64,000 nt of DNA from Bacteroidales bacterium. Lineage in GTDB: Bacteria > Bacteroidota > Bacteroidia > Bacteroidales > WCHB1-69. Positions 1,447 through 56,550 of the stretch are shown here, piece by piece. The DNA lies in contig JBGUPL010000014.1 of the NCBI GenBank assembly GCA_045130275.1, forward strand, positions 15,743-79,742, in the 5' to 3' direction. How positions within the stretch are numbered: position 1 is the stretch's first letter; every line of letters starts with the position of its first letter. Made by a program: the position numbers and the translations under genes. Under the pieces are notes generated by a model. It ran no database searches and was not told where the DNA came from. It worked only from the letters and a program-made list of their open reading frames with translations.

Positions 1447-1454
1447 GCTTTAAC

Positions 1455-1510
1455 GGTTAATGGTTAAAGGTTAATGGTTAATGGTTAAAGGTTAATGGTT
1501 AAAGGTTAAT
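1455..1510 (+). repeat. Tandem heptamer array (GGTTAAW)x8, 9 nt after the stop of the upstream gene
   Basis: Direct reading: GGTTAAT GGTTAAA GGTTAAT GGTTAAT GGTTAAA GGTTAAT GGTTAAA GGTTAAT. Every unit contains TAA. Confidence 0.95.
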
Positions 1511-1515
1511 GATGA

Positions 1516-2241
1516 ATGAATGAAATGATGAAGATAATGAATCCGATTCTATTGCATATTGAGACGGCTACGGATGTATGTTCTGTGGCATTGTCGCAGG
1601 GCGCGGAGGTCATCGGGTTGAAAGAGGAAGCCGGTGGCAACAACCACGCCAAACACCTCCTGCCGTTTGTGGATGAGGTGTTGAAGCAAGGCGGCTGCAC
1701 TGTCAGTGACCTCAATGGGGTGGCAGTGAGCATCGGACCCGGTTCCTATACAGGATTGCGCATTGGGGTTTCCACCGCGAAAGGCATCGCCTACACCGCC
1801 GGCATCCCCGTGATGGCTATCAGTACGTTGGAGAGTATCGCGCAGGGAGCCAAGCAGTTATGGCGAGAGTCGAACGAAGGGGCAGTCCAGTTTGTCCCAA
1901 TGATCGATGCCCGCCGCATGGAGGTCTTCACCACCCGTTTTGACTTCGACATGAATCTGTTGGAGGAGATTTCTTCCAAAATTGTGGACGAGAACACCTT
2001 TGCGGAGTTACTTTCGGAGCAGAAAGTCCTGTTTTGCGGCAACGGAATGCCCAAATGCCGCGAGTTGCTCTCCATTTGCCCCAACGCCCGCTTTGTGGAC
2101 ACTCCTGTCTCAGCCAAAAATATGCTCCCCGCTGCCTTGAAGAAGTGGCAAAATAATGATTTTGAGAATGTTGCATATTTTGAACCATTTTATCTGAAGG
2201 AATATGTGGCGGCCAAACCAGTGGTGAAGGGATTGAAATAA
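1516..2241 (+). CDS. tsaB: tRNA N6-threonylcarbamoyladenosine biosynthesis protein TsaB (YeaZ family)
   Basis: ILLHIETATDVCSVAL N-terminus and GPGSYTGLRIGVSTAKGIA motif. Several in-frame ATGs (1516, 1525, 1528, 1537) make the true start uncertain; 1537 (MNPILL...) is plausible. Confidence 0.85.
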   Translation: MNEMMKIMNPILLHIETATDVCSVALSQGAEVIGLKEEAGGNNHAKHLLPFVDEVLKQGGCTVSDLNGVAVSIGPGSYTGLRIGVSTAKGIAYTAGIPVMAISTLESIAQGAKQLWRESNEGAVQFVPMIDARRMEVFTTRFDFDMNLLEEISSKIVDENTFAELLSEQKVLFCGNGMPKCRELLSICPNARFVDTPVSAKNMLPAALKKWQNNDFENVAYFEPFYLKEYVAAKPVVKGLK

Positions 2242-2242
2242 A

Positions 2243-2274
2243 GGTTAGAAGGTTAGAGGGTTAAATGGTTAGAA
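2243..2274 (+). repeat. Tandem octamer array (GGTTAGAA/GGTTAGAG/GGTTAAAT/GGTTAGAA), 2 nt after the tsaB stop
   Basis: Direct reading. Each unit contains TAG or TAA. Inverted CTAACC / TTAAC copies follow at 2284-2296. Confidence 0.9.
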
Positions 2275-2312
2275 GATAACCCCCTAACCTCTTAACAAAT
2301 AAATCTTTCAAG

Positions 2313-3167
2313 ATGGAAGTACACGAACCGATAAAACGAGACCGGAACCTGAACATCACGGTCATTGCCGACGACTCCCGCGTCGGAAGGGTCGCGGTGG
2401 ACCATGGTGTGATGCTGGCTGAGGTGTTCCAAGCCTCGCTGACGGTCATGGCAAACTTCGGGTTCGGGTTCGGACTGCCCGAATCCCGCCATATCCCCGA
2501 CGATAGTAGCTATTTGAAGGAAATCCGAGATATGGTTTCGGGGACGAAAAACAGTCAGGTTGTCACGGATTACATTTTCCCTGAAACCCTGTTCAAGTAT
2601 GCGGAGGAGCATAACACGGCCATGTTTGTCATCGGGGTGGCCTATTTTCCGGAAGATCGTGCGGAGTGTTTTTTTACTGCGAAGAAAGCGCTCAAGTTCA
2701 TCCGCCAGTCGCGATTTCCCGTGATGACCGTTACGGCGTATCTTGAAAGTGTCACCGACTACAAAAACATCCTGCTTACCTTGGACATCGAGCGCCAGAA
2801 CAAAGAAAAGGCATTATGGGCGGGCTATTTCAGTCGGTTCTACGGATCTGTCATCCATATTCTCTATCCGAAATACAAAGACGAGGGGTTGGTCAAGTTA
2901 GTGCGCGACAACGTGGATTTCGTGGAGAAGCTATACGATAATCTGGAAATATCATACGATAAGTACCAAGTGCCATCGCAAAACCACTTGGATGCCTATG
3001 CCTTGACGGATACACACGAGTCCGGTGCCTTGGTCATCATGATGACGCGTTATTACACGCTCGCCGATCTGCTGACGGGTCCCCGCGAGCGCAAAATCAT
3101 CGGAAAGACAGGGATGCCGGTGCTGTGCATCAACCAGCGGGACGATCTTTACGTGCTTTGTACGTAG
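2313..3167 (+). CDS. Hypothetical protein, possibly two universal-stress-protein-like (adenine-nucleotide alpha-hydrolase) domains
   Basis: 284-aa ORF in a same-strand gene run. Two halves each begin with a short hydrophobic strand (NITVIADDS..., NILLTLDIE...) as in tandem USP domains. No firm motif was recognised. Confidence 0.4.
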   Translation: MEVHEPIKRDRNLNITVIADDSRVGRVAVDHGVMLAEVFQASLTVMANFGFGFGLPESRHIPDDSSYLKEIRDMVSGTKNSQVVTDYIFPETLFKYAEEHNTAMFVIGVAYFPEDRAECFFTAKKALKFIRQSRFPVMTVTAYLESVTDYKNILLTLDIERQNKEKALWAGYFSRFYGSVIHILYPKYKDEGLVKLVRDNVDFVEKLYDNLEISYDKYQVPSQNHLDAYALTDTHESGALVIMMTRYYTLADLLTGPRERKIIGKTGMPVLCINQRDDLYVLCT

Positions 3168-3171
3168 TCGG

Positions 3172-3203
3172 TTTAGGAGTTTAGAAGTTTAGGGGTTTAG
3201 GTT
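3172..3203 (+). repeat. Tandem octamer array (GTTTAGGA GTTTAGAA GTTTAGGG GTTTAGGT), 5 nt after a stop codon
   Basis: Direct reading. Each unit contains TAG. Confidence 0.9.
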
Positions 3204-3218
3204 GTCAATGTTTTTTAT

Positions 3219-3226
3219 ATCTTTGC
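3219..3226 (+). promoter_or_regulatory. Bacteroidota sigma-A -7 box (TATCTTTG)
   Basis: Matches the TAnnTTTG consensus, 25 nt upstream of ATG 3251. Confidence 0.5.
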
Positions 3227-3250
3227 GGTCTAATTGAATCGATTGAAAAA

Positions 3251-4261
3251 ATGGCGAAATTAGCAGTTGTCATACTCAATTGGAACGGGAGGAAGTTCTT
3301 GGAGCAGTTTCTGCCGACGTTGCTGAAGACGCTGCCGGATTATGCGGAGGCGGTGGTTTGCGACAATGCTTCCAGTGATGACTCCGTGTCGTTCATGCGG
3401 GAGCGTTTCCCGCAAGTGCGTTTGCTCCAGAATGAGCGTAACGAGGGTTTTGCGAGAGGCTACAACCTTGCTCTGCAGCAGGTTGAGGCCACTTACTACT
3501 GTCTGCTTAATTCCGACATTGAGGTGACGGAGGGTTGGATTGAACCGGTGATCGAGCAGATGGACGCGAACGAGAAAATCGCCGCGGTTCAGCCCAAGCT
3601 GCTCTCCTATTCCCGCCGCGATGAGTTCGAGTATGCCGGCGCGAGCGGCGGTTTTATTGACAAGTACGGCTATCCTTTCTGCCGTGGCCGGGTGTTCTCA
3701 AATGTGGAAAAGGATCACGGTCAATACGACACGGTGGAGGACATTTTCTGGGCGACCGGCGCTGCTATGTTCGTGCGCAGCGATGTTTACCACACTATGG
3801 GCGGTCTTGATGATGACTTTTTCGCCCACATGGAGGAGATTGACTTTTGCTGGCGCATCAAGAACATGGGTTTCAAGATCAAGGTGAACCCAGCTTCTGT
3901 GGTTTATCATATCGGCGGCGGTACGCTTCCGAAAAACAACCCGATGAAGACGTTCCTGAACTTTCGGAACAGCCTCTATCTTCTTATCAAAAATTTGCCG
4001 GATGACCGTCTTGCCAAAACATTGATACTTAGATTTTTCCTGGATCAAGTGGCGGCATTTTCCTTTCTCGCGCAAGGACATTTCAGGGATTTCACGGCGG
4101 TGTACAAGGCGATATTCACATTTGCCCGTACATATAAGCATTATTATGCCAAACGGAACACCTTGCCGAAGCTTGCGTTCCAGGACTGTTATCCTGAATC
4201 TGTCGTGAAGTTGCATTATTTGAAACACAAGAAAGTTTTTGACGGAAAGTCGTTCTCATAA
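3251..4261 (+). CDS. Glycosyltransferase family 2 (rhamnosyltransferase-like)
   Basis: VVILNWNGRKFLEQFLPTL...CDNASSDDS N-terminal GT-A signature and DDDFFAHMEEIDFCWR (DxD region). A TATCTTTG box lies 25 nt upstream. Confidence 0.85.
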   Translation: MAKLAVVILNWNGRKFLEQFLPTLLKTLPDYAEAVVCDNASSDDSVSFMRERFPQVRLLQNERNEGFARGYNLALQQVEATYYCLLNSDIEVTEGWIEPVIEQMDANEKIAAVQPKLLSYSRRDEFEYAGASGGFIDKYGYPFCRGRVFSNVEKDHGQYDTVEDIFWATGAAMFVRSDVYHTMGGLDDDFFAHMEEIDFCWRIKNMGFKIKVNPASVVYHIGGGTLPKNNPMKTFLNFRNSLYLLIKNLPDDRLAKTLILRFFLDQVAAFSFLAQGHFRDFTAVYKAIFTFARTYKHYYAKRNTLPKLAFQDCYPESVVKLHYLKHKKVFDGKSFS

Positions 4262-4272
4262 TACTGTCTAAG

Positions 4273-5061
4273 ATGGAAATTTTTGCCCAGTTTTACCACT
4301 ACCTGTTGCCTGTGATGACCGTCTTGGGTGTCTTGGTGTTTATCACATTACAGTTTGTGACACCCGCTTACGGTATGACCTTCAACAACCGCTGGGGTGT
4401 GTCGGTGCGCAGCAATTTGGGTTGGTTCATGATGGAGTGCCCGGTGTTTTTCACTATGCTGGTGCTCTATTTCATTTCTTTGGGACTTAATGTGAAGCCG
4501 TTTAATGTGGTGACCTGTGTGATGTTCATCTTTTTCGAGTTCCACTATTTCCAGCGCTCGTTCATATTCCCGCTGCTGATGAAGGGACAGAGCAAGATGC
4601 CGTTGTCAATCATCATCACCGGTGCGACGTTCAACACGTTCAACGCCATCATGCAGGGCGGCTGGCTCTTCTTTTTCTCGCCAGCGGATGCCTATCCCAT
4701 TAGCTGGTTCTGGTCGCCGCAGTTTATATTCGGCACGGCCTTGTTTCTGTTTGGTATGGTGGTCAATCTGCATTCCGACCGGGTGATCCGCGACTTGCGC
4801 AGCGACGTCACCGACAACAACTACTACATCCCTCACGGCTGGATGTTCCGCAAGATCAGTTCCGCCAATTATTTCGGGGAGATTTTGGAGTGGGCCGGTT
4901 TCGCCATTCTTACGTGGTCGGTGTCCGGCGCGGTGTTCCTGCTGTGGTGTATGGCCAACATCATCCCCCGCTCCAAGGCCGTATATGCACGCTACACCCA
5001 ATTCTTCGGCGAAGATTTCACATCCCTGAATCGGTATAAGATTTTCCCGTATATTTATTAG
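4273..5061 (+). CDS. 3-oxo-5-alpha-steroid 4-dehydrogenase (steroid 5-alpha-reductase / DUF1295-like) family membrane protein
   Basis: Multi-TM ORF with the C-terminal family signature YYIPHGWMFRKISSANYFGEILEWAGFAILTWS. Confidence 0.8.
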   Translation: MEIFAQFYHYLLPVMTVLGVLVFITLQFVTPAYGMTFNNRWGVSVRSNLGWFMMECPVFFTMLVLYFISLGLNVKPFNVVTCVMFIFFEFHYFQRSFIFPLLMKGQSKMPLSIIITGATFNTFNAIMQGGWLFFFSPADAYPISWFWSPQFIFGTALFLFGMVVNLHSDRVIRDLRSDVTDNNYYIPHGWMFRKISSANYFGEILEWAGFAILTWSVSGAVFLLWCMANIIPRSKAVYARYTQFFGEDFTSLNRYKIFPYIY

Positions 5062-5156
5062 CTATTAGCTATTAGCCTTTAGCCAATAGCTAATAGCCAA
5101 CAGCCAACAGCCAACAGCCAACAGCCAATAGCCAATAGCCAATAGCCAACAGCCAA
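5059..5156 (+). repeat. Tandem heptamer array, 14 units (TAGCTAT x2, TAGCCTT, TAGCCAA, TAGCTAA, TAGCCAA, CAGCCAA x4, TAGCCAA x3, CAGCCAA)
   Basis: Direct reading. The first unit's TAG (5059-5061) is the stop codon of the 4273..5061 gene. Nine units carry TAG. Confidence 0.95.
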
Positions 5157-5229
5157 CATACACAATAAAATTAAAAATCCGCTGTTTATAAGTAATTTGC
5201 AAGACAATGCATCAACTTGGTGAAAGTTG

Positions 5230-5237
5230 TATCTTTG
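5230..5237 (+). promoter_or_regulatory. -7 box TATCTTTG upstream of the TPR-porin-lipoprotein operon
   Basis: Matches TAnnTTTG, 36 nt upstream of ATG 5273. Confidence 0.5.
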
Positions 5238-5272
5238 TTCGTTTGTAAAATAGGTTATAATCAGTGAACTAT

Positions 5273-8200
5273 ATGAGAATATTCAAGTTTGTACTGCTGT
5301 TTATGGCAGCAGGTTTGTTTGCCGTCGAGTCTGCCGTGGCTCAGCGGACGGAGAATTTCAAGTCACCTTTGTATGAGTACCAAACGGCGGTGGATCTGTT
5401 TAACAAAGAGAAGTACGGTTCTGCGCAGCAGTATTTCAAGTATGTATATGAGAGCACTGAAGACAAGCAGCACGACCTGAAAACCAATTCGTTGTTCTAC
5501 CAGGGTGTGTGCGCCGCCAAACTCGACAACCAGGATGCCGGCTATCTGCTACAGACCTTCATCGACCGATATCCGGTGCACACCTCCGTGCCGGAAGCCC
5601 GTTTCTACCTCGGACGTTTTTATTTTGCACGGAAGAACTATAAGAAAGCAATCGCGCAGTTTGAAGAGATTTACGAATCGGAAATCCAGCCTGAAAACGT
5701 GCAGGAGTATCATTTCAAAAAGGGTTATTCTTATTTTATGACGTCGGATTACGACAACGCCAAGATGATGTTCCGGAAAGCGCGGGAGGAAGAAGGCCCT
5801 TATAAAGAACGCAGCACCTATTATCTTGCTTTCATGGCTTATCAGTCTGAACAATATGATGCCGCATTGGAAGATTTTCTCCAACTGAAAGATAACCCTG
5901 AGTTTAAGGAAGAAGTGCCTTATTTCCTTACCCAGATCTATTTCAAGGAAGGCGAGTATGAGAAAGTGTTGCAAGTCGCGCCGGAAGTCAGCACGCCGAA
6001 AGACAAAAACCAGTCTCAGGTGGTGCGCTGCGTGGCTCTGTCTCAATACAACCTCAACCAGTATGAGGAAGCCGCAGAGAACTTTGACAAATTGAAGAAC
6101 AACGATCAGGTGACGATGGACCGGAACGACTGGTTCGCGATGGGTTTCACGAACTACCGCGTGCGGAAGTACAATGAGGCCATTCCCGACTTTTCCCGTG
6201 CGGCCAACGACAAGCAACCCGATGCGATGACCCAGCAGTGTTATTTCCTCATCGCCGACTGCTATATGAAGACCGGTCAGCGCACCCTTGCAGCGCAAAG
6301 TTTCAAAGAGGCTTCCAAATATGATTTCGATCCCGCCGTGAAGGAAGAGGCGATGTTCAATTATGCCAAACTGCAGTGCGAGACCTCTACCAGTCCTTTC
6401 AACAACGGTATTGAAGCTTTGCAGGAATACCTCAACCAATACCCTTATGCAAAACACAGTGAGGAGGCCGCTGACTATCTGTCGCGGATTTATCTCTCCA
6501 CCAAGAACTACCAGGCAGCCATTTCCTCTATCGAAAAACTCAAGACAAAGAGCCCTGCCATCCTGAAGGCCTATCAACGTTGCACATACAACCGCGCCCT
6601 CGAGTTGATCAACAACAAGAACAACAAAGATGCCATCGCGCTGTTAAACAAGACGATAGGTTCTCCCTCAGAGAAGAAAACCCATCTGGATGCCCTCTAT
6701 TGGAAAGCGGAAGCGCAGTATCGCAACGAGCAGTACAAGGACGCTTACTATTCTTTCCAAACTTATCAGAACGCTGCTGGCGCATCTTCCAATGAATATT
6801 ATGTAAATTCCTTCTACTCACTTGGTTACGCGGCATTGAAAATGAAACGCTACAAGGATGCCGGAAACTATTTCAAGACGTATTTGAATAAAACAAAGAA
6901 AACAGAAGATATTGATATTCAGGCGGATGCATCTGCCCGTTTGGCCGATTGCTATTTCATGCAACTCGACCTCCCGAACGCTATTAAATACTACGACCAG
7001 TGCGAGCGTCTTGGACAGTCGAACGCAGACTATGCCGTATATCAGCTGGCCAAGTGCTATGGTTACCAGAAAAACAACAATAAGAAAATTCAAACCTTGG
7101 AAAGATTGTTAAACAACTATCCTTCAACTAGTTATAAAGATGATGCAGAGTTTGACCTGGCGGTGACCTACCATACGCAAAACGATTACACGAGTGCCAT
7201 CTCAGCGTATAAGTCCTTCATCAAAAATCATCCGAAGAGCCAGTACATCCGTCAGGCACACACCCGATTGGCGCAGGCGTACCTGAACAGCGACAACCCG
7301 CAGATGGCCATCTCGACCTACAAATACGTGGTGGAAACCTATCCTGGATCGCAAGAGGCTAAAGATGCGCTTGCCAACTTGGAAACCATCTACACGGAGA
7401 ACGGCAACACCAGCGAGTTCTTCGACTATGTGCGTTCCAAAAACATGAACATCTCTGCCGACCGTCAAGACTCCATCGCTTTCAAAGCTGCCGAGACCAA
7501 ATACAACCGCGGCGATTGCGAGTCCTCCATCGCTGCTTGTCAGGATTATATCCGTCAGTTCCCGAACGGTTCGTTTGTGGCCAAGGCCCATTTCTTCAAA
7601 GGCGAATGCGAGTACGGTATGAGACGCTATGATGACGCATTGGCTGATTATGAGGCTATTATCAAAAACTACAAGACAGAGTACAATGTCACAGCATTGC
7701 ACAAGGCCGCTTCTATATTATATAATGACAAGAAGTATGCAAAAGCGTTGACCTACTTCAACAAGCTGATGGAGAACACCACGGCGGAAGAGGAGATAAT
7801 CTATGCAAACAACGGAGCCATGCGCTGTGCCTACTTCTTGAAAGAGTACCGGTCGGCGCTGACGAGCGCGGAGAACATCATCCGTGCCAACCAGCCTGAT
7901 CAGGATTTGCTGTCGGAGGCATTGCTGATTGCCGGTAATTCGGCCATGGCGCTCAATGAAGTTTCTTCTGCGAAAGGCTATTACAGCCAGCTGATGCCGA
8001 AGGGCAGCAACGACTTGTGCGCCGAAGCTGCTTACCATTTGGCTGACATCGCCCTCAACTATGACAAGAATCTTGACGACTGCGAGGCGCGCATCAAGGC
8101 CATTCTCGGTAGCGATTACTCCTCCGAATATTGGTATGCCCGCACATTCATCCTCTACGGCGACCTCTACAGAGCCAAAGGCAATTATTTCCAAGCCCGT

Positions 8201-8296
8201 CACACTTACCAGAGCATTGTGGACAATTACGGTGGTGCGGATCTGGTGAAGATGGCACAAGATAAAATCGCTGAAATCGACGCACTTGAAAATTAA
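5273..8296 (+). CDS. Large secreted tetratricopeptide-repeat protein
   Basis: Signal-peptide-like N-terminus (MRIFKFVLLFMAAGLFAVESAVAQ). Dozens of TPR-like Y/F-rich helical repeats follow (YFxxAxxYxxxxxYxxAxxxF pattern) along ~1000 aa. The listed ORF starts at GTG 5264; ATG 5273 is preferred. Confidence 0.8.
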   Translation: MRIFKFVLLFMAAGLFAVESAVAQRTENFKSPLYEYQTAVDLFNKEKYGSAQQYFKYVYESTEDKQHDLKTNSLFYQGVCAAKLDNQDAGYLLQTFIDRYPVHTSVPEARFYLGRFYFARKNYKKAIAQFEEIYESEIQPENVQEYHFKKGYSYFMTSDYDNAKMMFRKAREEEGPYKERSTYYLAFMAYQSEQYDAALEDFLQLKDNPEFKEEVPYFLTQIYFKEGEYEKVLQVAPEVSTPKDKNQSQVVRCVALSQYNLNQYEEAAENFDKLKNNDQVTMDRNDWFAMGFTNYRVRKYNEAIPDFSRAANDKQPDAMTQQCYFLIADCYMKTGQRTLAAQSFKEASKYDFDPAVKEEAMFNYAKLQCETSTSPFNNGIEALQEYLNQYPYAKHSEEAADYLSRIYLSTKNYQAAISSIEKLKTKSPAILKAYQRCTYNRALELINNKNNKDAIALLNKTIGSPSEKKTHLDALYWKAEAQYRNEQYKDAYYSFQTYQNAAGASSNEYYVNSFYSLGYAALKMKRYKDAGNYFKTYLNKTKKTEDIDIQADASARLADCYFMQLDLPNAIKYYDQCERLGQSNADYAVYQLAKCYGYQKNNNKKIQTLERLLNNYPSTSYKDDAEFDLAVTYHTQNDYTSAISAYKSFIKNHPKSQYIRQAHTRLAQAYLNSDNPQMAISTYKYVVETYPGSQEAKDALANLETIYTENGNTSEFFDYVRSKNMNISADRQDSIAFKAAETKYNRGDCESSIAACQDYIRQFPNGSFVAKAHFFKGECEYGMRRYDDALADYEAIIKNYKTEYNVTALHKAASILYNDKKYAKALTYFNKLMENTTAEEEIIYANNGAMRCAYFLKEYRSALTSAENIIRANQPDQDLLSEALLIAGNSAMALNEVSSAKGYYSQLMPKGSNDLCAEAAYHLADIALNYDKNLDDCEARIKAILGSDYSSEYWYARTFILYGDLYRAKGNYFQARHTYQSIVDNYGGADLVKMAQDKIAEIDALEN

Positions 8297-8364
8297 CCCA
8301 CTAACCTATTAACCCACTAACCTTCTAACCTTTTAACCATTTAACCATTTAACCTTAAAACCAT
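8293..8364 (+). repeat. Tandem octamer array, about 9 units (TTAACCCA CTAACCTA TTAACCCA CTAACCTT CTAACCTT TTAACCAT TTAACCAT TTAACCTT AAAACCAT)
   Basis: Direct reading. The TAA of the first unit (8294-8296) is the stop codon of the TPR gene. The unit core is the reverse complement of the GGTTAA/GGTTAG arrays at 1455 and 2243. Confidence 0.9.
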
Positions 8365-8367
8365 AAT

Positions 8368-10311
8368 ATGAAAAAAATAGCAATTCCAGTAATAATAGCA
8401 ATAATGCTGTCGGCTATCGGTTCAAGCGCGCAGGTGGTGGATTCCGCCCAGCTTTTGATCAAATATGTGCCGAAGTTGGCCAATTCCAACAAAATTAATC
8501 AGCAGGCGGTGCTGAAAGATACCGTGGTGAGCGAACAGATGGAGTTCAACTATGTGATCGCGCCGACCAAGCCGGAGCTGAGTTTCGAACCGGGCGAAAT
8601 GCAGGTGGGTAAGCTCAACCCGGAGGTGAAGGAACGCTATTACCGCAACTACCTGAAACTTGGATTCGGATACCCTATCACGCCCTTGGCGGAATTGTCG
8701 ATGCACAACTGCCAAAATCCGAAGTATTCCTACGGCTTGAATTTCCACCATTTCTCGTCCTGGGCGGAACCGATCGGGAAGGTGCAGAAAAAGTTCGCCT
8801 ACGCGCCCACGAGCGACACGCGTGTGAACCTGTTTTTCAACCGGATTTTCAAAAACCACACTTTTTACTCCTCTGTCGGCTACAACCACGAACTAGCCAA
8901 CTTGTACGGCTACTCTACAGATTGGGTGTGTCCGGAACTCTATCGGAATCCTGAACAGTACTACAGCAAAGAGTATAGGGATAGCATTAAGAATAATTTC
9001 AACCATGTACGTGCGGAGGTCGGTCTCCGCTCTAACTACACAGCTGATGAGAAAAGACTGAAAGAAGATGTGCGTGTGAACTACGATTTCATCCACACCA
9101 GTTGGAAAAACATGGAACACGGGGTCGGGCTGCATGGCATGCTGGCCTATGATGCCAAGTTCCTGAAAATTTCTGGCTACCAGCATTATCAATTGGATTT
9201 GGGCTTGGACTATTTCAACAATGTCTGGAGCGACAGCATTCCAATGGGAACGGACAGCAGTCTCCTGAAGCGCCGTGCCGAGAATAGTCTCATGTTCGAG
9301 TTCAAGCCGACCATGAGTTTCAGTATCCGCGAATACCACCTGATGCTGGGTGTCGGGGTGCCGGTGCTGAACCAGTACAACAAGACACAATGTCCGATCT
9401 ACCCGGTTGCCGAGTTGCAGATGGGGCTCATCCGCGAAGTGCTGAACCTCTATGTCGGGGTGGACGGCCGAAGCGAATACACTTCGCTGAAAAAACTGCT
9501 GTACGAGAATCCCTATGTAAAGCCGAACCTGGACACCCTGCGCTTCATGAAATCGCAGATCAGTATATACGGTGGCGTGAAGGGCAAAATCACGTCCAAA
9601 CTGAACTATCATGTCGCCGCCCGCTACTCTTATTGCCGTGACCTGCCGTTTTTCATGCTCGACACGGCCAGTCTGCTGAAAAACCAGTTTGATGTGGTGT
9701 ATGCAAAGAAGGGTACGGAGCTAGACGTGACTGCCAACTTGAGTTGGGAGGCCATCAATCATTTGTATTTGAATCTGATGGGCCGCTACCACGATTTCTA
9801 TTTCCTCGAAGACTACGATTGGTTTAACTCTGACCAGATTACTGGTGGAAAACCGCTCTACATCCCGCGCTGGGAGATCGGTTTCGAGGGCAAATACATC
9901 CTGAAGAACCGCTATATCTTCACTGCCAATGCAAAAGTGGGCTTCAACCGCTGGGTGGTGGTGCCGAGAAGTATGCCGGTGGTGGATGAGCATGGTTTGA
10001 TGGAATTGGATGACAACGGCAATGTTGTCCATCGGATGAGTTACTCGGTGGAGAACGATATTCGCCATTCCCAAAGCGGTGAGTCAGCAACGGCTATGCC
10101 GGTGCTGAACTTTGGTATCGGATTTGAATATCTGATTACCAAGCAGTTCACTGCGTTTGCAAACATCAACAATATTGGTTGCCAGTACGCCACAAACTAT
10201 TACGGATTCAATAATTTCGGAATTAACGCCATCGTGGGTATCACCTATTCGTTTGGCAATGAGGCGATTAAGCCGTTGAAGAAAAAATCCATCGCGGAAA
10301 AAGCAATATAA
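8368..10311 (+). CDS. Outer-membrane beta-barrel protein (putative porin family)
   Basis: Signal peptide (MKKIAIPVIIAIMLSAIGSSAQ) and alternating aromatic/hydrophilic beta-strand pattern throughout. Terminal-strand-like ...NAIVGITYSF sits near the C-terminus. Confidence 0.6.
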   Translation: MKKIAIPVIIAIMLSAIGSSAQVVDSAQLLIKYVPKLANSNKINQQAVLKDTVVSEQMEFNYVIAPTKPELSFEPGEMQVGKLNPEVKERYYRNYLKLGFGYPITPLAELSMHNCQNPKYSYGLNFHHFSSWAEPIGKVQKKFAYAPTSDTRVNLFFNRIFKNHTFYSSVGYNHELANLYGYSTDWVCPELYRNPEQYYSKEYRDSIKNNFNHVRAEVGLRSNYTADEKRLKEDVRVNYDFIHTSWKNMEHGVGLHGMLAYDAKFLKISGYQHYQLDLGLDYFNNVWSDSIPMGTDSSLLKRRAENSLMFEFKPTMSFSIREYHLMLGVGVPVLNQYNKTQCPIYPVAELQMGLIREVLNLYVGVDGRSEYTSLKKLLYENPYVKPNLDTLRFMKSQISIYGGVKGKITSKLNYHVAARYSYCRDLPFFMLDTASLLKNQFDVVYAKKGTELDVTANLSWEAINHLYLNLMGRYHDFYFLEDYDWFNSDQITGGKPLYIPRWEIGFEGKYILKNRYIFTANAKVGFNRWVVVPRSMPVVDEHGLMELDDNGNVVHRMSYSVENDIRHSQSGESATAMPVLNFGIGFEYLITKQFTAFANINNIGCQYATNYYGFNNFGINAIVGITYSFGNEAIKPLKKKSIAEKAI

Positions 10312-20760: not shown

Positions 20761-20790
20761 TAGACTATTATTTTATTGTATATAACTTAA

Positions 20791-20823
20791 ATAGAAGAGA
20801 CTGATAAAGTCTCTTCTATTTTG
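20791..20823 (+). terminator. Rho-independent terminator after the PorV-like gene
   Basis: 12-bp perfect stem ATAGAAGAGACT / AGTCTCTTCTAT with loop GATAA, followed by TTTTG. Confidence 0.8.
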
Positions 20824-37005: not shown

Positions 37006-39699
37006 CTATAGCGTGTCGCCAGTTTCATTTTCGCCTTCTTGAACCTTTTTCTCCAGTTCCATTTTACCGAAACGTAGTGTGATGCCGGCTGATACATAAC
37101 GGCTGTTCAGCATCCAGTTGGTGCTGTTGTTCAGGAAGTAAGGATTCGTGTTGACCGAACCGGAACCGTATCGGCCACCCCAGTTGAAGATGTCCTGCAC
37201 ATTGACGAAAATCGACAACTTACGTTTGAAAAGGTCGCTACGGAGACCGAAATTCAAGGCGTAACGGGCTTTGCGCTCGCTCATCAGACTGATTGTCGGG
37301 GAATTGTAGAAGCCGGAAGCGGTGAACTGCAGCCAATCGAAAGCCTTGGCCCAGAAGTTCAGTCGCACGCTCCATGACCACTTGTCGCGTCCGTCGGTCT
37401 GATGTACACCATCGCGGTCATACTCCATCTTATAACCGTAATCATAGACATTGGCGTAGAGTCGCAGGTTGACGAAACCGGTCGGACGGTAGGTGGCGTT
37501 CAGCGATGCGCCGTAACGCCAAGAGGTCCCCATGTTGTATGGTACGGAGTAACTGACGACCCGGTCGAGGTATTGGTCGAACTCGGAGTCAGTCAGCGAA
37601 CTGATTTCGTTGGTGCTCAACCGTCCGTAAACCTCCACTCCGACGTTGCCGAAACGGTTGAAATACTTCTGCCAGCCCGCTTCCAGGTTGTGCGTGAATC
37701 CGCTTCTCAGTCCCTTCGGGTTGCTCGAAGAGTAACGCCCGAAAGGATTGCCTGTGGAGTAGTTGTTGTCGCCGTAACGGCGGAAATGGCTCAAGTCTTC
37801 CTCGTCAGGGTGCGACATACGCATGGAGTAGTTAAGTTTGATATTGTGCATACTCTTGGTGCGGTATGTGAGGTGGATGGAGGGGCGCAACGAGAAGAAA
37901 ATAGGTGCGCCTTCATCGGCGAAAGGCATGTCGCTGATGTACTCGTAGGCATCGCGCAACATACCCACACCCAAGCCAGTGCTGAGAGTGAAACCGCCCC
38001 AGCGGTGCGTCCAGTTCACATCGGCGTTGACATTCGTCGAACCGCCGTTGAAATGGTATGCACGCAAGGTGTCCACTATTTCTCCGTCAAGGTCGTTGTA
38101 GCGGCGATAATCGTTGCTCATTTGGAAATGACTGGTGCGCATACCGTAGCTCATCTCGCCGTTTTCACTGTATGGCCGGTTGTAACGGGCGTCGAAGTCT
38201 GCACCGTAGCGGAAGCTGCGTGTGAGCAAGTAGCGGTGCTCGTCAAGGTCGTAGTATGTATCGTAGAAACGGTTGTACCACTGTTCGCTGGCATTGTGCG
38301 AGAACCGACCGTTCAGGCCGAGCCGCAGATTGTGTCCTTTGTTGTCGAACTTCTTGGTGTAATCCACCCCGGCGTGGGTCATCACAGACCACCCCTGGGT
38401 TTTGCTGAGTGTGGTGTCAATATATTCTTTAGAGAACGGTGGCATTGAATCTAAGTAGAAATAGGTCTGGTCACGCGAGATGATGTACCGGGAATTGTTG
38501 TTGTTGTAAAATCCACCCGCATCAAAAGAGATCTCACTGGTGGAGTCAATCTCGTAGTTGACCCCGAGGAAAAAGTTGGCGGAACCACTGCGGTTCGTGT
38601 CATGTTGCAAAATGGAGCTTGACCAGGTGGTGTCATATCCACCCTCGTTGCCCACGGCGTCGCGTCGCTGATAGGACTGTGATTCCGTTGCGTTGCGGCG
38701 AGAACTATAACGTCCTGATACAAATAGATTTACGCTTAATTTCTCCTTCGTCCACATATAGCTGACCCACGGAGACACAAACGGTTGGTTGGAACCGTTG
38801 ATGCCGAAACTGACGAACTGGTTGCTCTTGACGTGTGCGGAGGTGACGATGTTGATGACCGCCTCGGCATCGGTGGCGTATTTGGCCGACGGGTTGGTAA
38901 TAGCCTCGATACGCTCAAGTGCGTTGGCGGGAAGCGTCTGCAGGTAGGTCTTGAGATTCTCTTCGGTGAGTTTGGAGGGTTTGTCATTGATCCAGATTTC
39001 CACGCTTGACACACCGCGCAAGGTGATGTTGCCCTCCACATCGACCTCCACGCCGGGCGCGTTCTGCAGCGCGTCTTCGGTGGTGCCGGTCTGGATGGAA
39101 GCATCCTCGCTGACATTATAGACGAGCTTCTCCCCATCCATGGCGTAGATGGGCTTTTCCGTCTTGATGGTCACTTCACCCAAAGAAGTGGAGATGGGCA
39201 TAAGCTTCACGGTACCCAGATTGGTGTTGTTCTCCACGGTGAACGGGATGATGCGTGGGGTGTAGTTGAAGAACCAAACACGGAGCAGGCATTTGCCTTG
39301 AGGCACACCGTCAATTTCGAAATAGCCGTTGTTATTGGCGGAGGTGCCTTTGATGATCATGGAATCCTCCGCGTCAAGGACTGCCACGTTGGCATAGGCC
39401 AGGGGCGTTCCTGCAATGGAGTCGCGCAGCAAGCCCACCACTTTGAAGGTGGCACCCTCGCGCACCTTTTTTTTCTGCTTCACTTGTGGGTTCTGCTGTG
39501 GCATTTGCTGATTCCAGCCGCCACGATCGCCTCCCATCGGAGGCCTTCCGCCCGGATAACCACCACCCGGAGGCCGTCCGCCGGGATATCCGCCGCCCGG
39601 GGGCTGCGCCATGACGCATAAGGCCGATAGCGACAGTATCGCGATCATTGTGATAAACTTGAAAATAGTTATTCTTCTAGAAAAATCAGCAAAGTTCAT
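37006..39699 (-). CDS. Outer-membrane beta-barrel family protein with carboxypeptidase-regulatory-like domain and Gly/Pro-rich N-terminal repeats
   Basis: Signal peptide. (PPGGGYPGGR)x2-like repeat. CarboxypepD_reg-like segment (FKVVGLLRDSIAGTPLAYANVAVLD...NNGYFEIDGVPQGKCLL). Plug-like TLRGVSSVEIWINDKP. Long barrel. Confidence 0.7.
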   Translation of the reverse strand: MNFADFSRRITIFKFITMIAILSLSALCVMAQPPGGGYPGGRPPGGGYPGGRPPMGGDRGGWNQQMPQQNPQVKQKKKVREGATFKVVGLLRDSIAGTPLAYANVAVLDAEDSMIIKGTSANNNGYFEIDGVPQGKCLLRVWFFNYTPRIIPFTVENNTNLGTVKLMPISTSLGEVTIKTEKPIYAMDGEKLVYNVSEDASIQTGTTEDALQNAPGVEVDVEGNITLRGVSSVEIWINDKPSKLTEENLKTYLQTLPANALERIEAITNPSAKYATDAEAVINIVTSAHVKSNQFVSFGINGSNQPFVSPWVSYMWTKEKLSVNLFVSGRYSSRRNATESQSYQRRDAVGNEGGYDTTWSSSILQHDTNRSGSANFFLGVNYEIDSTSEISFDAGGFYNNNNSRYIISRDQTYFYLDSMPPFSKEYIDTTLSKTQGWSVMTHAGVDYTKKFDNKGHNLRLGLNGRFSHNASEQWYNRFYDTYYDLDEHRYLLTRSFRYGADFDARYNRPYSENGEMSYGMRTSHFQMSNDYRRYNDLDGEIVDTLRAYHFNGGSTNVNADVNWTHRWGGFTLSTGLGVGMLRDAYEYISDMPFADEGAPIFFSLRPSIHLTYRTKSMHNIKLNYSMRMSHPDEEDLSHFRRYGDNNYSTGNPFGRYSSSNPKGLRSGFTHNLEAGWQKYFNRFGNVGVEVYGRLSTNEISSLTDSEFDQYLDRVVSYSVPYNMGTSWRYGASLNATYRPTGFVNLRLYANVYDYGYKMEYDRDGVHQTDGRDKWSWSVRLNFWAKAFDWLQFTASGFYNSPTISLMSERKARYALNFGLRSDLFKRKLSIFVNVQDIFNWGGRYGSGSVNTNPYFLNNSTNWMLNSRYVSAGITLRFGKMELEKKVQEGENETGDTL

Positions 39700-45101: not shown

Positions 45102-45680
45102 ATGGAAATAGTATTTGCCACTCATAACTTGCATAAAACCGAGGAAGTGCGGGCCATTCTCGGTTCCCGATACCACATCCTCAATCTGCCCGAACTGGGC
45201 TGTCCCGACATCCCGGAAACCGCTGACACGCTGAAAGGCAATGCCTTGCAAAAAGTACAGTATGTCGTGGACCATTATCATCGTAACTGTTTCGCCGACG
45301 ACACAGGACTGGAGGTCGAAGCGCTCGGAAACCAACCAGGAGTCTATTCCGCCCGTTATGCCGGCGAAGGGTGCTCCTATCAAGACAACGTCCGCAAACT
45401 GCTGGCAGAGATGCAGGGCAAAACCAATCGCAAAGCTTGTTTCAAGACGGTGGTTGCCCTTGTCATGGACGGGAAAGAATACTTTTTCGAAGGCCGTGTG
45501 GATGGCATCATCCTCCCCGAACAGCGCGGCACTGATGGCTTCGGTTACGACCCCGTCTTCCTCCCCGACGGCTACGACCAAACCTTCGCAGAAATGGATG
45601 CCGCCACCAAGAACAGCATCAGCCACCGCGGCCGCGCCATACGAAAACTTGCCGCGTTTCTTTTGGATTGCGGCAAGTGA
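45102..45680 (+). CDS. rdgB: Non-canonical purine NTP pyrophosphatase (dITP/XTP pyrophosphatase, RdgB/HAM1 family)
   Basis: IVFATHNLHKTEE, DDTGLEVEAL, FGYDPVFLPDGYDQTFAEM, SHRGRA motifs. Confidence 0.9.
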   Translation: MEIVFATHNLHKTEEVRAILGSRYHILNLPELGCPDIPETADTLKGNALQKVQYVVDHYHRNCFADDTGLEVEALGNQPGVYSARYAGEGCSYQDNVRKLLAEMQGKTNRKACFKTVVALVMDGKEYFFEGRVDGIILPEQRGTDGFGYDPVFLPDGYDQTFAEMDAATKNSISHRGRAIRKLAAFLLDCGK

Positions 45681-45768
45681 TTTTATTTCGGAAATTGAAG
45701 CGGAAAAACGGAAAATGCGGAAACAAACAACGGAAAACTATTCTGTCCCAAATCCTTCCCCTACCCTC

Positions 45769-45800
45769 CACTGTTCACTGTTCACTGTTCACTGTTCACT
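45769..45800 (-). repeat. Tandem heptamer array (GTGAACA on the minus strand, about 4.5 units) encoding the purN C-terminus and stop
   Basis: Plus strand reads CACTGTT x4 + CACT. The minus strand reads gtg aac agt gaa cag tga = VNSEQ*. Each unit contains TGA. Confidence 0.9.
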
Positions 45801-52185: not shown

Positions 52186-52226
52186 AAAAGAGGGAAGTCC
52201 ATTCGGATTTCCCTCTTTTCGTTTTT
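52186..52226. terminator. Bidirectional terminator between tonB and the convergent hypothetical gene
   Basis: Stem AAAAGAGGGAA / TTCCCTCTTTT, flanked by an A-run and a T-run. Confidence 0.7.
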
Positions 52227-56390: not shown

Positions 56391-56393
56391 TAG

Positions 56394-56413
56394 GGGCGAA
56401 TGATTATTCGCCC
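56394..56413. repeat. REP-like perfect hairpin GGGCGAAT-gatt-ATTCGCCC preceded by CTGTAG
   Basis: 8-bp perfect inverted repeat with a 4-nt loop. The CTGTAGGGGCG prefix resembles the CTGTAGAGACG / CTGTAGAAACG palindromes inside the GH97 genes. Confidence 0.85.
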
Positions 56414-56468
56414 AATTCACCCAATTCGCCCAATTCACCCAATTCGCAAAATTCGCAAAATTCGCCGA
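56406..56468 (+). repeat. Tandem 9-mer array (ATTCGCCCA ATTCACCCA ATTCGCCCA ATTCACCCA ATTCGCAAA ATTCGCAAA ATTCGCCGA)
   Basis: Direct reading. The first unit is the right arm of the 56394-56413 hairpin. Confidence 0.9.
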
Positions 56469-56499
56469 CAAAAAAGGCGCCGCAACTGCGACGCCTTTT
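56469..56499 (-). terminator. Terminator after the permease-HMA operon (bidirectional shape)
   Basis: GGCGCCGC-aact-GCGACGCC stem (one C-A mismatch), flanked by A7 and T4. On the minus strand the stem is followed by TTTTTTG. Confidence 0.6.
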
Positions 56500-56550
56500 C
56501 CATATCATTGCGATATTGGTTTTCTTTTTGGCATATGCCACTCTTATGAT

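Follow-up and report, generated by a model that had tools for sequence, protein, structure and literature searches.

We found that the intergenic spacers of a 64,000 nt stretch of DNA from a Bacteroidales bacterium (GTDB lineage WCHB1-69; assembly GCA_045130275.1, contig JBGUPL010000014.1, positions 15,743 to 79,742; hereafter the window) contain arrays of short units, 7 to 9 nt long and repeated head to tail, many of which lie directly against the stop codons of genes. These arrays are likely to be long simple sequence repeats (LSSRs), mainly heptamers with some octamers, of a class known from Cyanobacteria, Xanthomonas, Burkholderia and Beggiatoaceae, which have grown in place and are bounded by constrained sequence. 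The arrays are genuine but follow a largely known pattern, and their occurrence in a rumen Bacteroidales lineage extends the known class. In the mechanism which we propose, tandem duplication of a local word of 7–8 nt would form an array in place, the array would gain and lose whole units, most likely by slipped-strand mispairing during replication, and it would spread until it reached constrained sequence, which is the stop codon on its upstream side and the promoter or start region on its downstream side. Arrays would survive only in spacers because a period which is not a multiple of three is not tolerated inside genes, and the stop codon would often look like the first unit because stop-bearing units let an array absorb the stop of a gene while leaving the protein unharmed.

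Copy number, abundance and placement of the arrays

The window was compared with a metagenome contig from another sample (L001), which carries the same genes and is 0.97 identical to it at four-fold sites. The two differed almost solely in arrays 1, 2, 4 and 5 (Table 1), and there by insertions and deletions of whole units: array 1 had approximately 10 units in L001 against 8 in the window (a gain of ~1–2 units), the inverted arm of array 2 was 24 nt longer, array 4 had 4 units against 14 (70 nt shorter) and array 5 had 4 units against 9 (40 nt shorter). Contigs from other runs contained a 16-nt insertion in array 2 (run X2) and 8-nt gaps in array 5 (runs X2 and X5). An initial annotation of the window, made from its sequence, had suggested that the arrays could be slippage-prone variable-number tandem repeats and had proposed a comparison of copy number across strains; these differences of whole units in a near-identical strain are in line with that suggestion. 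A 21-nt super-period, equal to two helical turns, was also considered and was rejected, as the order of variant units was aperiodic and different in L001.

The same loci with the same flanks recur in independent ENA, Logan and JGI assemblies from different samples, the locus-bearing runs being bovine, sheep and goat gut metagenomes. The arrays are therefore not assembly artefacts, which the initial annotation had named as a possible refutation. Arrays in the window were called with Tandem Repeats Finder (TRF) and by direct reading of the sequence; both agreed with the units and copy numbers originally given for six arrays (arrays 1–6), and two further arrays were found, a degenerate 8-mer array at 45698–45723 and a 9-mer array at 56406–56466. 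TRF scores of the arrays were 48–114. A strict detector of our own flagged 5 arrays in the window, 3 of which were octamers, while second-order Markov simulations yielded none in 19 of 20 runs and a single array in the other. In the first 8.4 kb, all 5 spacers with a length of 30 nt or more contain an array, compared to 2 of the 20 other such spacers (P ~0.0004, by our own arithmetic).

Relatives of the locus were collected by a protein-guided scan of metagenome contigs, giving 80 loci with 98–59% identity to the steroid-5-alpha-reductase-like protein encoded upstream of array 4. Genes in the fetched loci were called by a longest open reading frame (ORF) heuristic, for which stops are exact and starts and some calls of "inside ORF" are unreliable. 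When TRF was run on 926 kb of relatives together with the window, arrays outside called ORFs had periods of 7 (n = 102), 14 (n = 27), 21 (n = 9) and 8 (n = 21), whereas multiples of three (12, 15, 21, 9 and 24) predominated inside called ORFs, where period 7 was found 10 times. Four sister clades, two of them of equal GC content, contained 2.0, 0.57, 3.9 and 1.3 arrays per 10 kb, and array abundance is thus dependent on lineage.

A scan of 185,579 species genomes for GGTTANN x4 returned at least 120 loci. Among the matches listed (120 genome loci, counted from their titles), approximately 30 were from Cyanobacteria and approximately 50 from Bacteroidota, with many rumen metagenome-assembled genomes, and the remainder were from Acidobacteriota, Planctomycetota, Chloroflexota and others. 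Placement was counted at these listed GGTTANN loci. In co-directional spacers, 44 of 109 arrays began within 10 nt of the upstream stop, compared to 21 expected under uniform placement; in convergent spacers, 30 of 37 arrays lay within 10 nt of a gene end; and divergent spacers were depleted of arrays. Random placement relative to genes, another possible refutation raised at the outset, was not seen at these loci. In the relatives, which were chosen without regard to array content, the stop codon of a gene recurred at +7, +14 and +21 in 7.8%, 7.2% and 5.3% of 587 unique 3′ ends, against a background of ~2.5%. Arrays abut stop codons approximately twice as often as uniform placement would give, and this placement is real but has already been reported: the initial annotation was not aware of any described element with such a rule, but the rule is published (PMC4692102, PMC4679880). 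It should also be noted that GGTTANN x4 is common in IMG/VR viral contigs among the matches listed (L207–L319), including giant-virus bins, with 24 matches in L272.

The arrays of the window start 0–8 nt after stop codons, much as was first described. The stop was also said to lie inside a unit in three cases, and these are the reductase-like gene, the TPR gene and purN; in addition, the tsaB array overlaps the final base of the stop. The last 4–5 codons of purN (ending ..VNSEQ before the stop) are encoded by array 6, and its stop stays within the first three sense-strand units, however many copies follow. The genes flanking arrays 1–5 are all on the plus strand and encode a GH3/beta-lactamase-like hydrolase, TsaB, an unknown protein, a family-2 glycosyltransferase, the steroid-5-alpha-reductase-like membrane protein, a large TPR protein (ATG 5273) and two unknown proteins. 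Array 1 is followed at 1508–1541 by an ATGA-rich run, AATGATGAATGAATGAAATGATGAAGATAATGAAT, which offers several in-frame ATGs for tsaB (1516 or 1537). A 30-nt period repeat of 2.2 copies at 39538–39604 lies inside a long minus-strand ORF (37006–39699) and is probably a protein-coding repeat unrelated to the intergenic arrays.

Table 1 Tandem arrays and predicted promoter boxes, in positions of the window
Feature	Position	Strand	Unit and copies	Neighbouring genes
Array 1	1450..1511	+	(GGTTAAW)x8-9, period 7; 8 units from 1455	Fills the spacer between the GH3/beta-lactamase-like gene (stop TAG 1444-1446; array begins 3-8 nt downstream) and tsaB (ATG 1516 or 1537)
Array 2, left arm	2241..2275	+	GGTTAGAA-type x4, period 8; units from 2243	tsaB stop TAA 2239-2241; array begins on its last A
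Array 2, right arm	2276..2295	+	Inverted copies (CTAACCYC) pairing with the left arm to form a hairpin	
Array 3	3171..3201	+	GTTTAGGA-type x4, period 8	Gene 3 stop TAG 3165-3167; array begins 3 nt past it
Array 4	5056..5158	+	TATTAGC x3 grading into (Y)AGCCAA; TAGCYAW/CAGCCAA type; ~14 units from 5059, period 7	Steroid-reductase-like gene stop TAG 5059-5061, the beginning of a unit, in the first unit of the array
Array 5	8292..8364	+	TTAACCNN x9, period 8	Between the TPR gene (stop TAA 8294-8296 inside TTAACC, first unit) and gene 7 (ATG 8368)
Array 6	45769..45800	-	(GTGAACA)x4.6 on the purN sense strand; CACTGTT on the + strand	purN (minus strand) stop TGA 45782-45784 inside the array
Degenerate 8-mer array	45698..45723	+	CGGAAAAN x3; TRF score 36	Starts 18 nt past the Ham1/RdgB stop (45678-45680)
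9-mer array	56406..56466	+	ATTCRCCCA / ATTCGCAAA, ~6.5 units	
Bacteroidetes-type -7 box	3218-3225		TATCTTTG	Just downstream of array 3; 25 nt upstream of the glycosyltransferase start
Bacteroidetes-type -7 box	5230-5237		TATCTTTG	35 nt upstream of the TPR start; in a block conserved across all relatives

Turnover and conservation at orthologous spacers

The slot after the reductase-like gene, which is occupied by array 4 in the window, contained, depending on lineage, either a hairpin, nothing or one of five or more unrelated heptamers. The heptamers begin at the stop codon and include TAGCYAW/CAGCCAA (window, L127 and L128), YAGGCAA (L149), TAGAATG/CAGAATG (L146), TGACGTR (L147 and L150) and CTGAAAA-type units (L167–L170); a GC-rich hairpin takes their place in L133, L136, L141, L144 and L155, and the group of ~80% identity has no spacer at all. 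Despite this turnover, both the C-terminus of the reductase (..YIY before the stop) and the downstream promoter block (TTG ... TATCTTTG) were conserved across relatives. A single TGACGT comes after the stop in L130, L131 and L134, and an amplified form of it, (TGACGTR)n, is present in L147 and L150, indicating that these arrays grow out of the local sequence. In the same manner, the 9-mer array at 56406 is the amplified right arm of a palindromic hairpin, TAGGGGCGAATGATTATTCGCCC, at 56391–56413. This palindrome is found once in the window, very similar hairpins occupy the array slots of L133 and L144, and a separate GC-rich hairpin, flanked by runs of A and T, lies beyond the 9-mer array at 56473–56500.

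Other slots also changed between lineages. The tsaB junction contains units of GGTTAGAA in the window, (AGTTAGY)n in L128 and no spacer in L127, whose TGA overlaps the following ATG; at this junction the array is therefore dispensable. The slot of array 5 is filled in relatives by TAATTGA, AGTTAGY or other arrays, and array 3 is kept in L001, L127 and L128, where local four-fold identity is still 0.85. Overall, long arrays are hypervariable and dispensable. The divergence of 2313–10308 from L127 is itself a mosaic, with a four-fold identity of 0.85 in gene 3 and 0.58–0.66 in its neighbours, which suggests recombination between lineages.

Several results weigh against the view that all of these arrays are LSSRs which simply grew in place, and the slippage mechanism is itself inferred, from the insertions and deletions of whole units and from the occurrence of variant units in blocks. 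Five relatives (L130, L133, L135, L141 and L149) share a (TAATTGA)4-5 array which separates the TPR gene from gene 7 and leads into GGAGAG and an ATG. Over the 48 nt that precede this ATG they were 71–92% identical (81–92% in 9 of 10 pairs, 71–75% with L130) and a variant unit, TAATGGA, is preserved within the array, whereas the four-fold sites of the flanking genes were 0.28–0.58 identical (measured for the TPR gene on its C-terminal 250 codons). Fisher tests gave p = 2e−10 to 3e−7 for three pairs and 0.04 for a fourth. Among the same five lineages, no alignment could be obtained for ordinary short spacers or for the parts of other spacers close to stops. A second short array, (GGTTATT)4, is kept directly after the stop of another gene in four lineages, with a four-fold identity in its flanks of 0.44–0.73 (two of the four lineages measured). 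By our own reasoning, a neutral array that evolves in concert should have a consensus which drifts at the neutral rate; since the identity of the array exceeds that of synonymous sites, the short arrays look selected. A subset of arrays therefore appears, from these alignments, to be under selection and conserved beyond synonymous saturation, which pure neutrality does not predict, and it is probable that the conserved arrays of 4–5 units were co-opted, perhaps to serve as an unstructured intercistronic leader or as a platform for binding.

The units are also non-random in content. They are diverse, with 51 distinct heptamers among 74 arrays, but 64% have a stop triplet on a given strand, compared to 43% of AT-matched intergenic heptamers, and only 9% are free of stops on both strands, compared to 42% expected. 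Of the 32 strand-symmetric triplets, TAG, TAA and TGA rank among the five with the strongest enrichment (~2-fold, on both strands), and the words GTTA and GGTT are 3.6-fold enriched. A strand rule also holds: arrays no more than 30 nt away from a stop mostly have their G-rich strand on sense (29:8 and 40:12), in part because an array gains a G when it overlaps a stop of TAG or TGA, and among the listed GGTTANN-selected loci the C-rich strand is sense just upstream of starts (22:6). Lastly, related units recur in neighbouring slots of one genome, including AGTTAGY in two slots of L128 and CAGCCAA with its complement in two slots of L127. The conserved arrays, the non-random units, the strand rule and this recurrence are not obviously predicted by slippage in combination with purifying selection. 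In the window, a GGTTA core is common to arrays 1, 2 and 5, and the TTAACC of array 5 is, as previously pointed out, the reverse complement of GGTTAA.

Comparison with known repeat classes

The class which the arrays most plausibly belong to, the LSSRs of Mrazek et al. 2007, is summarised in PMC4679880 as having units of 5–11 nt, of which heptamers are the most common; they are described there as sporadic and lineage-specific, with units which are not a multiple of three excluded from coding sequence and polymerase slippage as the proposed cause. The genomes named in that summary as the richest are those of Burkholderia, Cyanobacteria, Actinobacteria and Xanthomonas, and gut Bacteroidales are not in its list. 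The arrays studied here share with LSSRs a length beyond chance, the dominance of heptamers, exclusion from coding sequence, variation by whole units and sporadic abundance between lineages.

Rehm et al. 2015 (PMC4692102) described heptameric repeats, GGGAATC in Xanthomonas and GGGGAYT in Nostoc, which are found preferentially between aligned ORFs, overlap stop codons, occur as inverted pairs and prefer four units. Our arrays are similarly strongly intergenic tandem heptamers, preferred between co-directional ORFs and rare between divergent ones; they share the proximity to stops (≤ 50 bp from the stop or overlapping it), the G-rich strand on sense, frequent inverted pairs and common short arrays of ~4 units. 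However, the Xanthomonas and Nostoc units have tracts of G3-4 and form quadruplexes, with one unit dominating each genome, whereas our units have GG at most, are AT-rich and very diverse, and include octamers. Consistent with this, at least four G3+ tracts were found only in the 9-mer array at 56406, whose minus strand carries a G3-tract quadruplex motif; arrays 1–6 have none on either strand.

TAACTGA direct repeats were reported by MacGregor 2015 (PMC4679880) in Beggiatoaceae, Cyanobacteria and five Bacteroidetes, where they overlap upstream stop codons, and in Gramella, Aequorivita and Elizabethkingia long TAACTGA arrays adjoin other heptamer arrays. These repeats resemble ours as intergenic heptamers with stops in all frames, some lying over the upstream stop codon, as places where contigs break, and in that close relatives lack repeats at the same locus. 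They differ in consisting of a single unit which is mostly oriented towards, and immediately upstream of, start codons, and no tandem TAACTGA was found in the window.

The short tandemly repeated repetitive (STRR) sequences of Cyanobacteria are likewise tandem heptanucleotides in non-coding DNA, and GGTTANN arrays are also abundant in that phylum. The STRR units are CCCCAGT, TTGGTCA and CAACAGT, which differ from ours and stem from another phylum, and none of the three was found in tandem in the window. STRR heptamers are also mentioned in PMC4692102. Phase-variable contingency loci of Haemophilus, Neisseria and others share slippage-driven change in copy number with our arrays, but their repeats lie inside ORFs or between promoter elements, where copy number switches a gene on or off. 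The arrays studied here lie after stops or upstream of a promoter, with reading frame and box spacing unaffected; array 3, for example, ends upstream of the -7 box, so that changes in its units leave the spacing of the promoter boxes unaltered.

Alternative explanations and significance

RNA fold predictions revealed no fold common to the arrays. Arrays 3 and 5 were predicted at 0 kcal/mol, array 1 at −18 kcal/mol through self-pairing of TTAA, array 2 with its inverted arm at −21 kcal/mol (z −6.3) in the window and −37 kcal/mol in L001, and array 4, the 5′ part of which is an inverted pair with a predicted hairpin, at approximately −22 kcal/mol as a whole. A scan for sigma-70 promoters and terminators gave hits at chance level, with no terminator-like hit in any array spacer. 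The hairpins of arrays 2 and 4 are without a U tract and arrays 3 and 5 are unfolded; with no canonical terminator in the array spacers and no U tract after any array, the initial annotation was correct that these are not hairpin terminators. The promoter motifs of the window are of the TAnnTTTG type (Table 1). RNA data consisted of sparse, low-depth Logan metatranscriptome unitigs, which break at arrays and are therefore uninformative on termination or read-through. RNA contigs from three runs begin at 3233–3248, consistent with the predicted promoter at 3218–3225, and one RNA contig, whose first position (5163) is just beyond array 4 and upstream of the predicted promoter, extends into the TPR gene, which argues weakly against efficient termination at array 4. 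Perfect or near-perfect inverted repeats of 14–15 bp at 20789–20821 and 52186–52219, in spacers after genes, are similar to ordinary hairpin terminators, and the genome thus seems to use conventional terminators elsewhere.

We consider it very unlikely that the arrays act as transcription terminators or insulators which have replaced the GC-rich hairpin terminators of the same slots in sister lineages. The slots after the reductase-like gene and gene 8 do contain hairpins in relatives, some with T runs, where the window or L127 has arrays, and the array-bearing spacers are without a canonical terminator. The inverted pairs of arrays 2 and 4 have the strong predicted folds given above (−21 to −37 kcal/mol), array 4 is C-rich and G-poor and array 5 lacks G on the plus strand, as at a Rho loading site, and transcripts of the published repeats start or stop there more often than in controls (Rehm 2015, PMC4692102). 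However, the sense strand of arrays 1–3 is rich in G and poor in C, contrary to what a Rho site would have; arrays 3, 5 and 6 have little or no predicted structure and no array has a U tract after it; arrays 1, 2 and 5 separate genes without a recognisable promoter of their own, where termination would be harmful; and, as weak evidence, there is the RNA contig which begins just beyond array 4. A fail-safe translational stop, in which arrays would be selected to place stops in all three frames and release read-through or frameshifted ribosomes, had also been put forward and now seems highly improbable. Most units, though not each one as the heading of the initial annotation has it, do hold a stop triplet, periods of 7 and 8 cycle stops through all frames, the same stop repeats at +7, +14 and +21 beyond gene ends, and the stop of the TPR gene comes from the first TAATTGA unit in L141 and L149. 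Once arrays which overlap the stop are set aside, though, stop triplets are as frequent on the antisense strand as on the sense strand (stop presence per unit, sense vs antisense: 12 vs 11, 22 vs 28, 17 vs 21 and 36 vs 31; TAA vs TTA: 13 vs 12 and 36 vs 31). This equal enrichment is not predicted by a translational function of the sense strand and leaves the fail-safe reading unsupported; furthermore, the CAGCCAA units of array 4 are free of stops, arrays distant from any 3′ end are equally rich in them, and L127 has no spacer at the tsaB junction at all.

It is also unlikely, though less so, that the arrays are selected binding platforms for RNA or single-stranded DNA, on which a protein with domains of ~7 nt (cold-shock, S1 or another OB fold, or RRM) would bind head to tail, keeping the spacer unstructured or tuning coupling, stability or termination; the 7-nt period and the favourite units would then reflect the protein and not the polymerase. 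This would account for the conservation of (TAATTGA)4-5 beyond synonymous saturation with copy number held at 4–5, for the retention of (GGTTATT)4 in four lineages, for the recurrence of related units across the slots of one genome, for the lack of predicted structure in arrays 3 and 5, and for a sense strand which is G-rich after stops and C-rich before starts, as is also the case in Rehm 2015 (PMC4692102). B. subtilis CspB prefers the heptanucleotide GTCTTTG/T (PMC1904285), and MacGregor proposed S1, Csp or CsrA for the TAACTGA repeats (PMC4679880). Against it stand the great diversity of units (51 heptamers in 74 arrays), the unrelated units, hairpin or missing spacer in the same slot of sister lineages, the varying copy number of long arrays between near-identical strains and the lack of a common fold, and the putative binding protein was not identified in this analysis. 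Assembly artefacts, mobile-element fragments and a CRISPR array have next to no probability as explanations. Short-read unitigs do break at arrays 1 and 4, and contig depth (1300–8500; runs X1, X2 and X5) rises ~20–25-fold at these two arrays and ~5-fold at array 5, and there are many different loose ends; the rise in depth comes about because similar arrays sit at many other loci in the same rumen metagenomes. Independent assemblies agree on arrays and flanks, each array is shorter than a read, and the units derive from local sequence. The CRISPR pattern of 24–48 nt repeats with unique spacers is absent, the 7–9 nt units abutting without any spacer between them, as the initial annotation had also concluded. 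A search of the window against Rfam gave no matches, which also counts against these readings, although no search was aimed at terminal inverted repeats or target-site duplications.

In-place growth of LSSRs is therefore the reading which we retain. The arrays have practical consequences: they break short-read assemblies of rumen Bacteroidales and shift annotated stop codons, and they could serve as strain-typing markers. Heptamer arrays seem to be especially common in Bacteroidota and Cyanobacteria, two groups which make little use of Shine-Dalgarno sites. As a bolder and quite doubtful proposal, heptamer arrays may form a selected class of intercistronic and 3′-end elements, bound in register by a single-strand-binding protein of cold-shock or S1 fold at ~7 nt per domain; if so, favourite units would evolve separately in each lineage, with the hypervariable long arrays supplying raw material and the conserved arrays of 4–5 units being the working form. 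The dominance of heptamers, their hugging of stop codons and the units favoured by each lineage are questions which were left open in the 2015 papers (PMC4692102, PMC4679880). This clade provides a natural comparative series for them, in which the same spacer carries unrelated arrays, a hairpin or nothing in sister lineages, and as one short array has been conserved beyond the time over which synonymous sites retain any signal, the question of whether such arrays are neutral or functional is testable at a defined locus.

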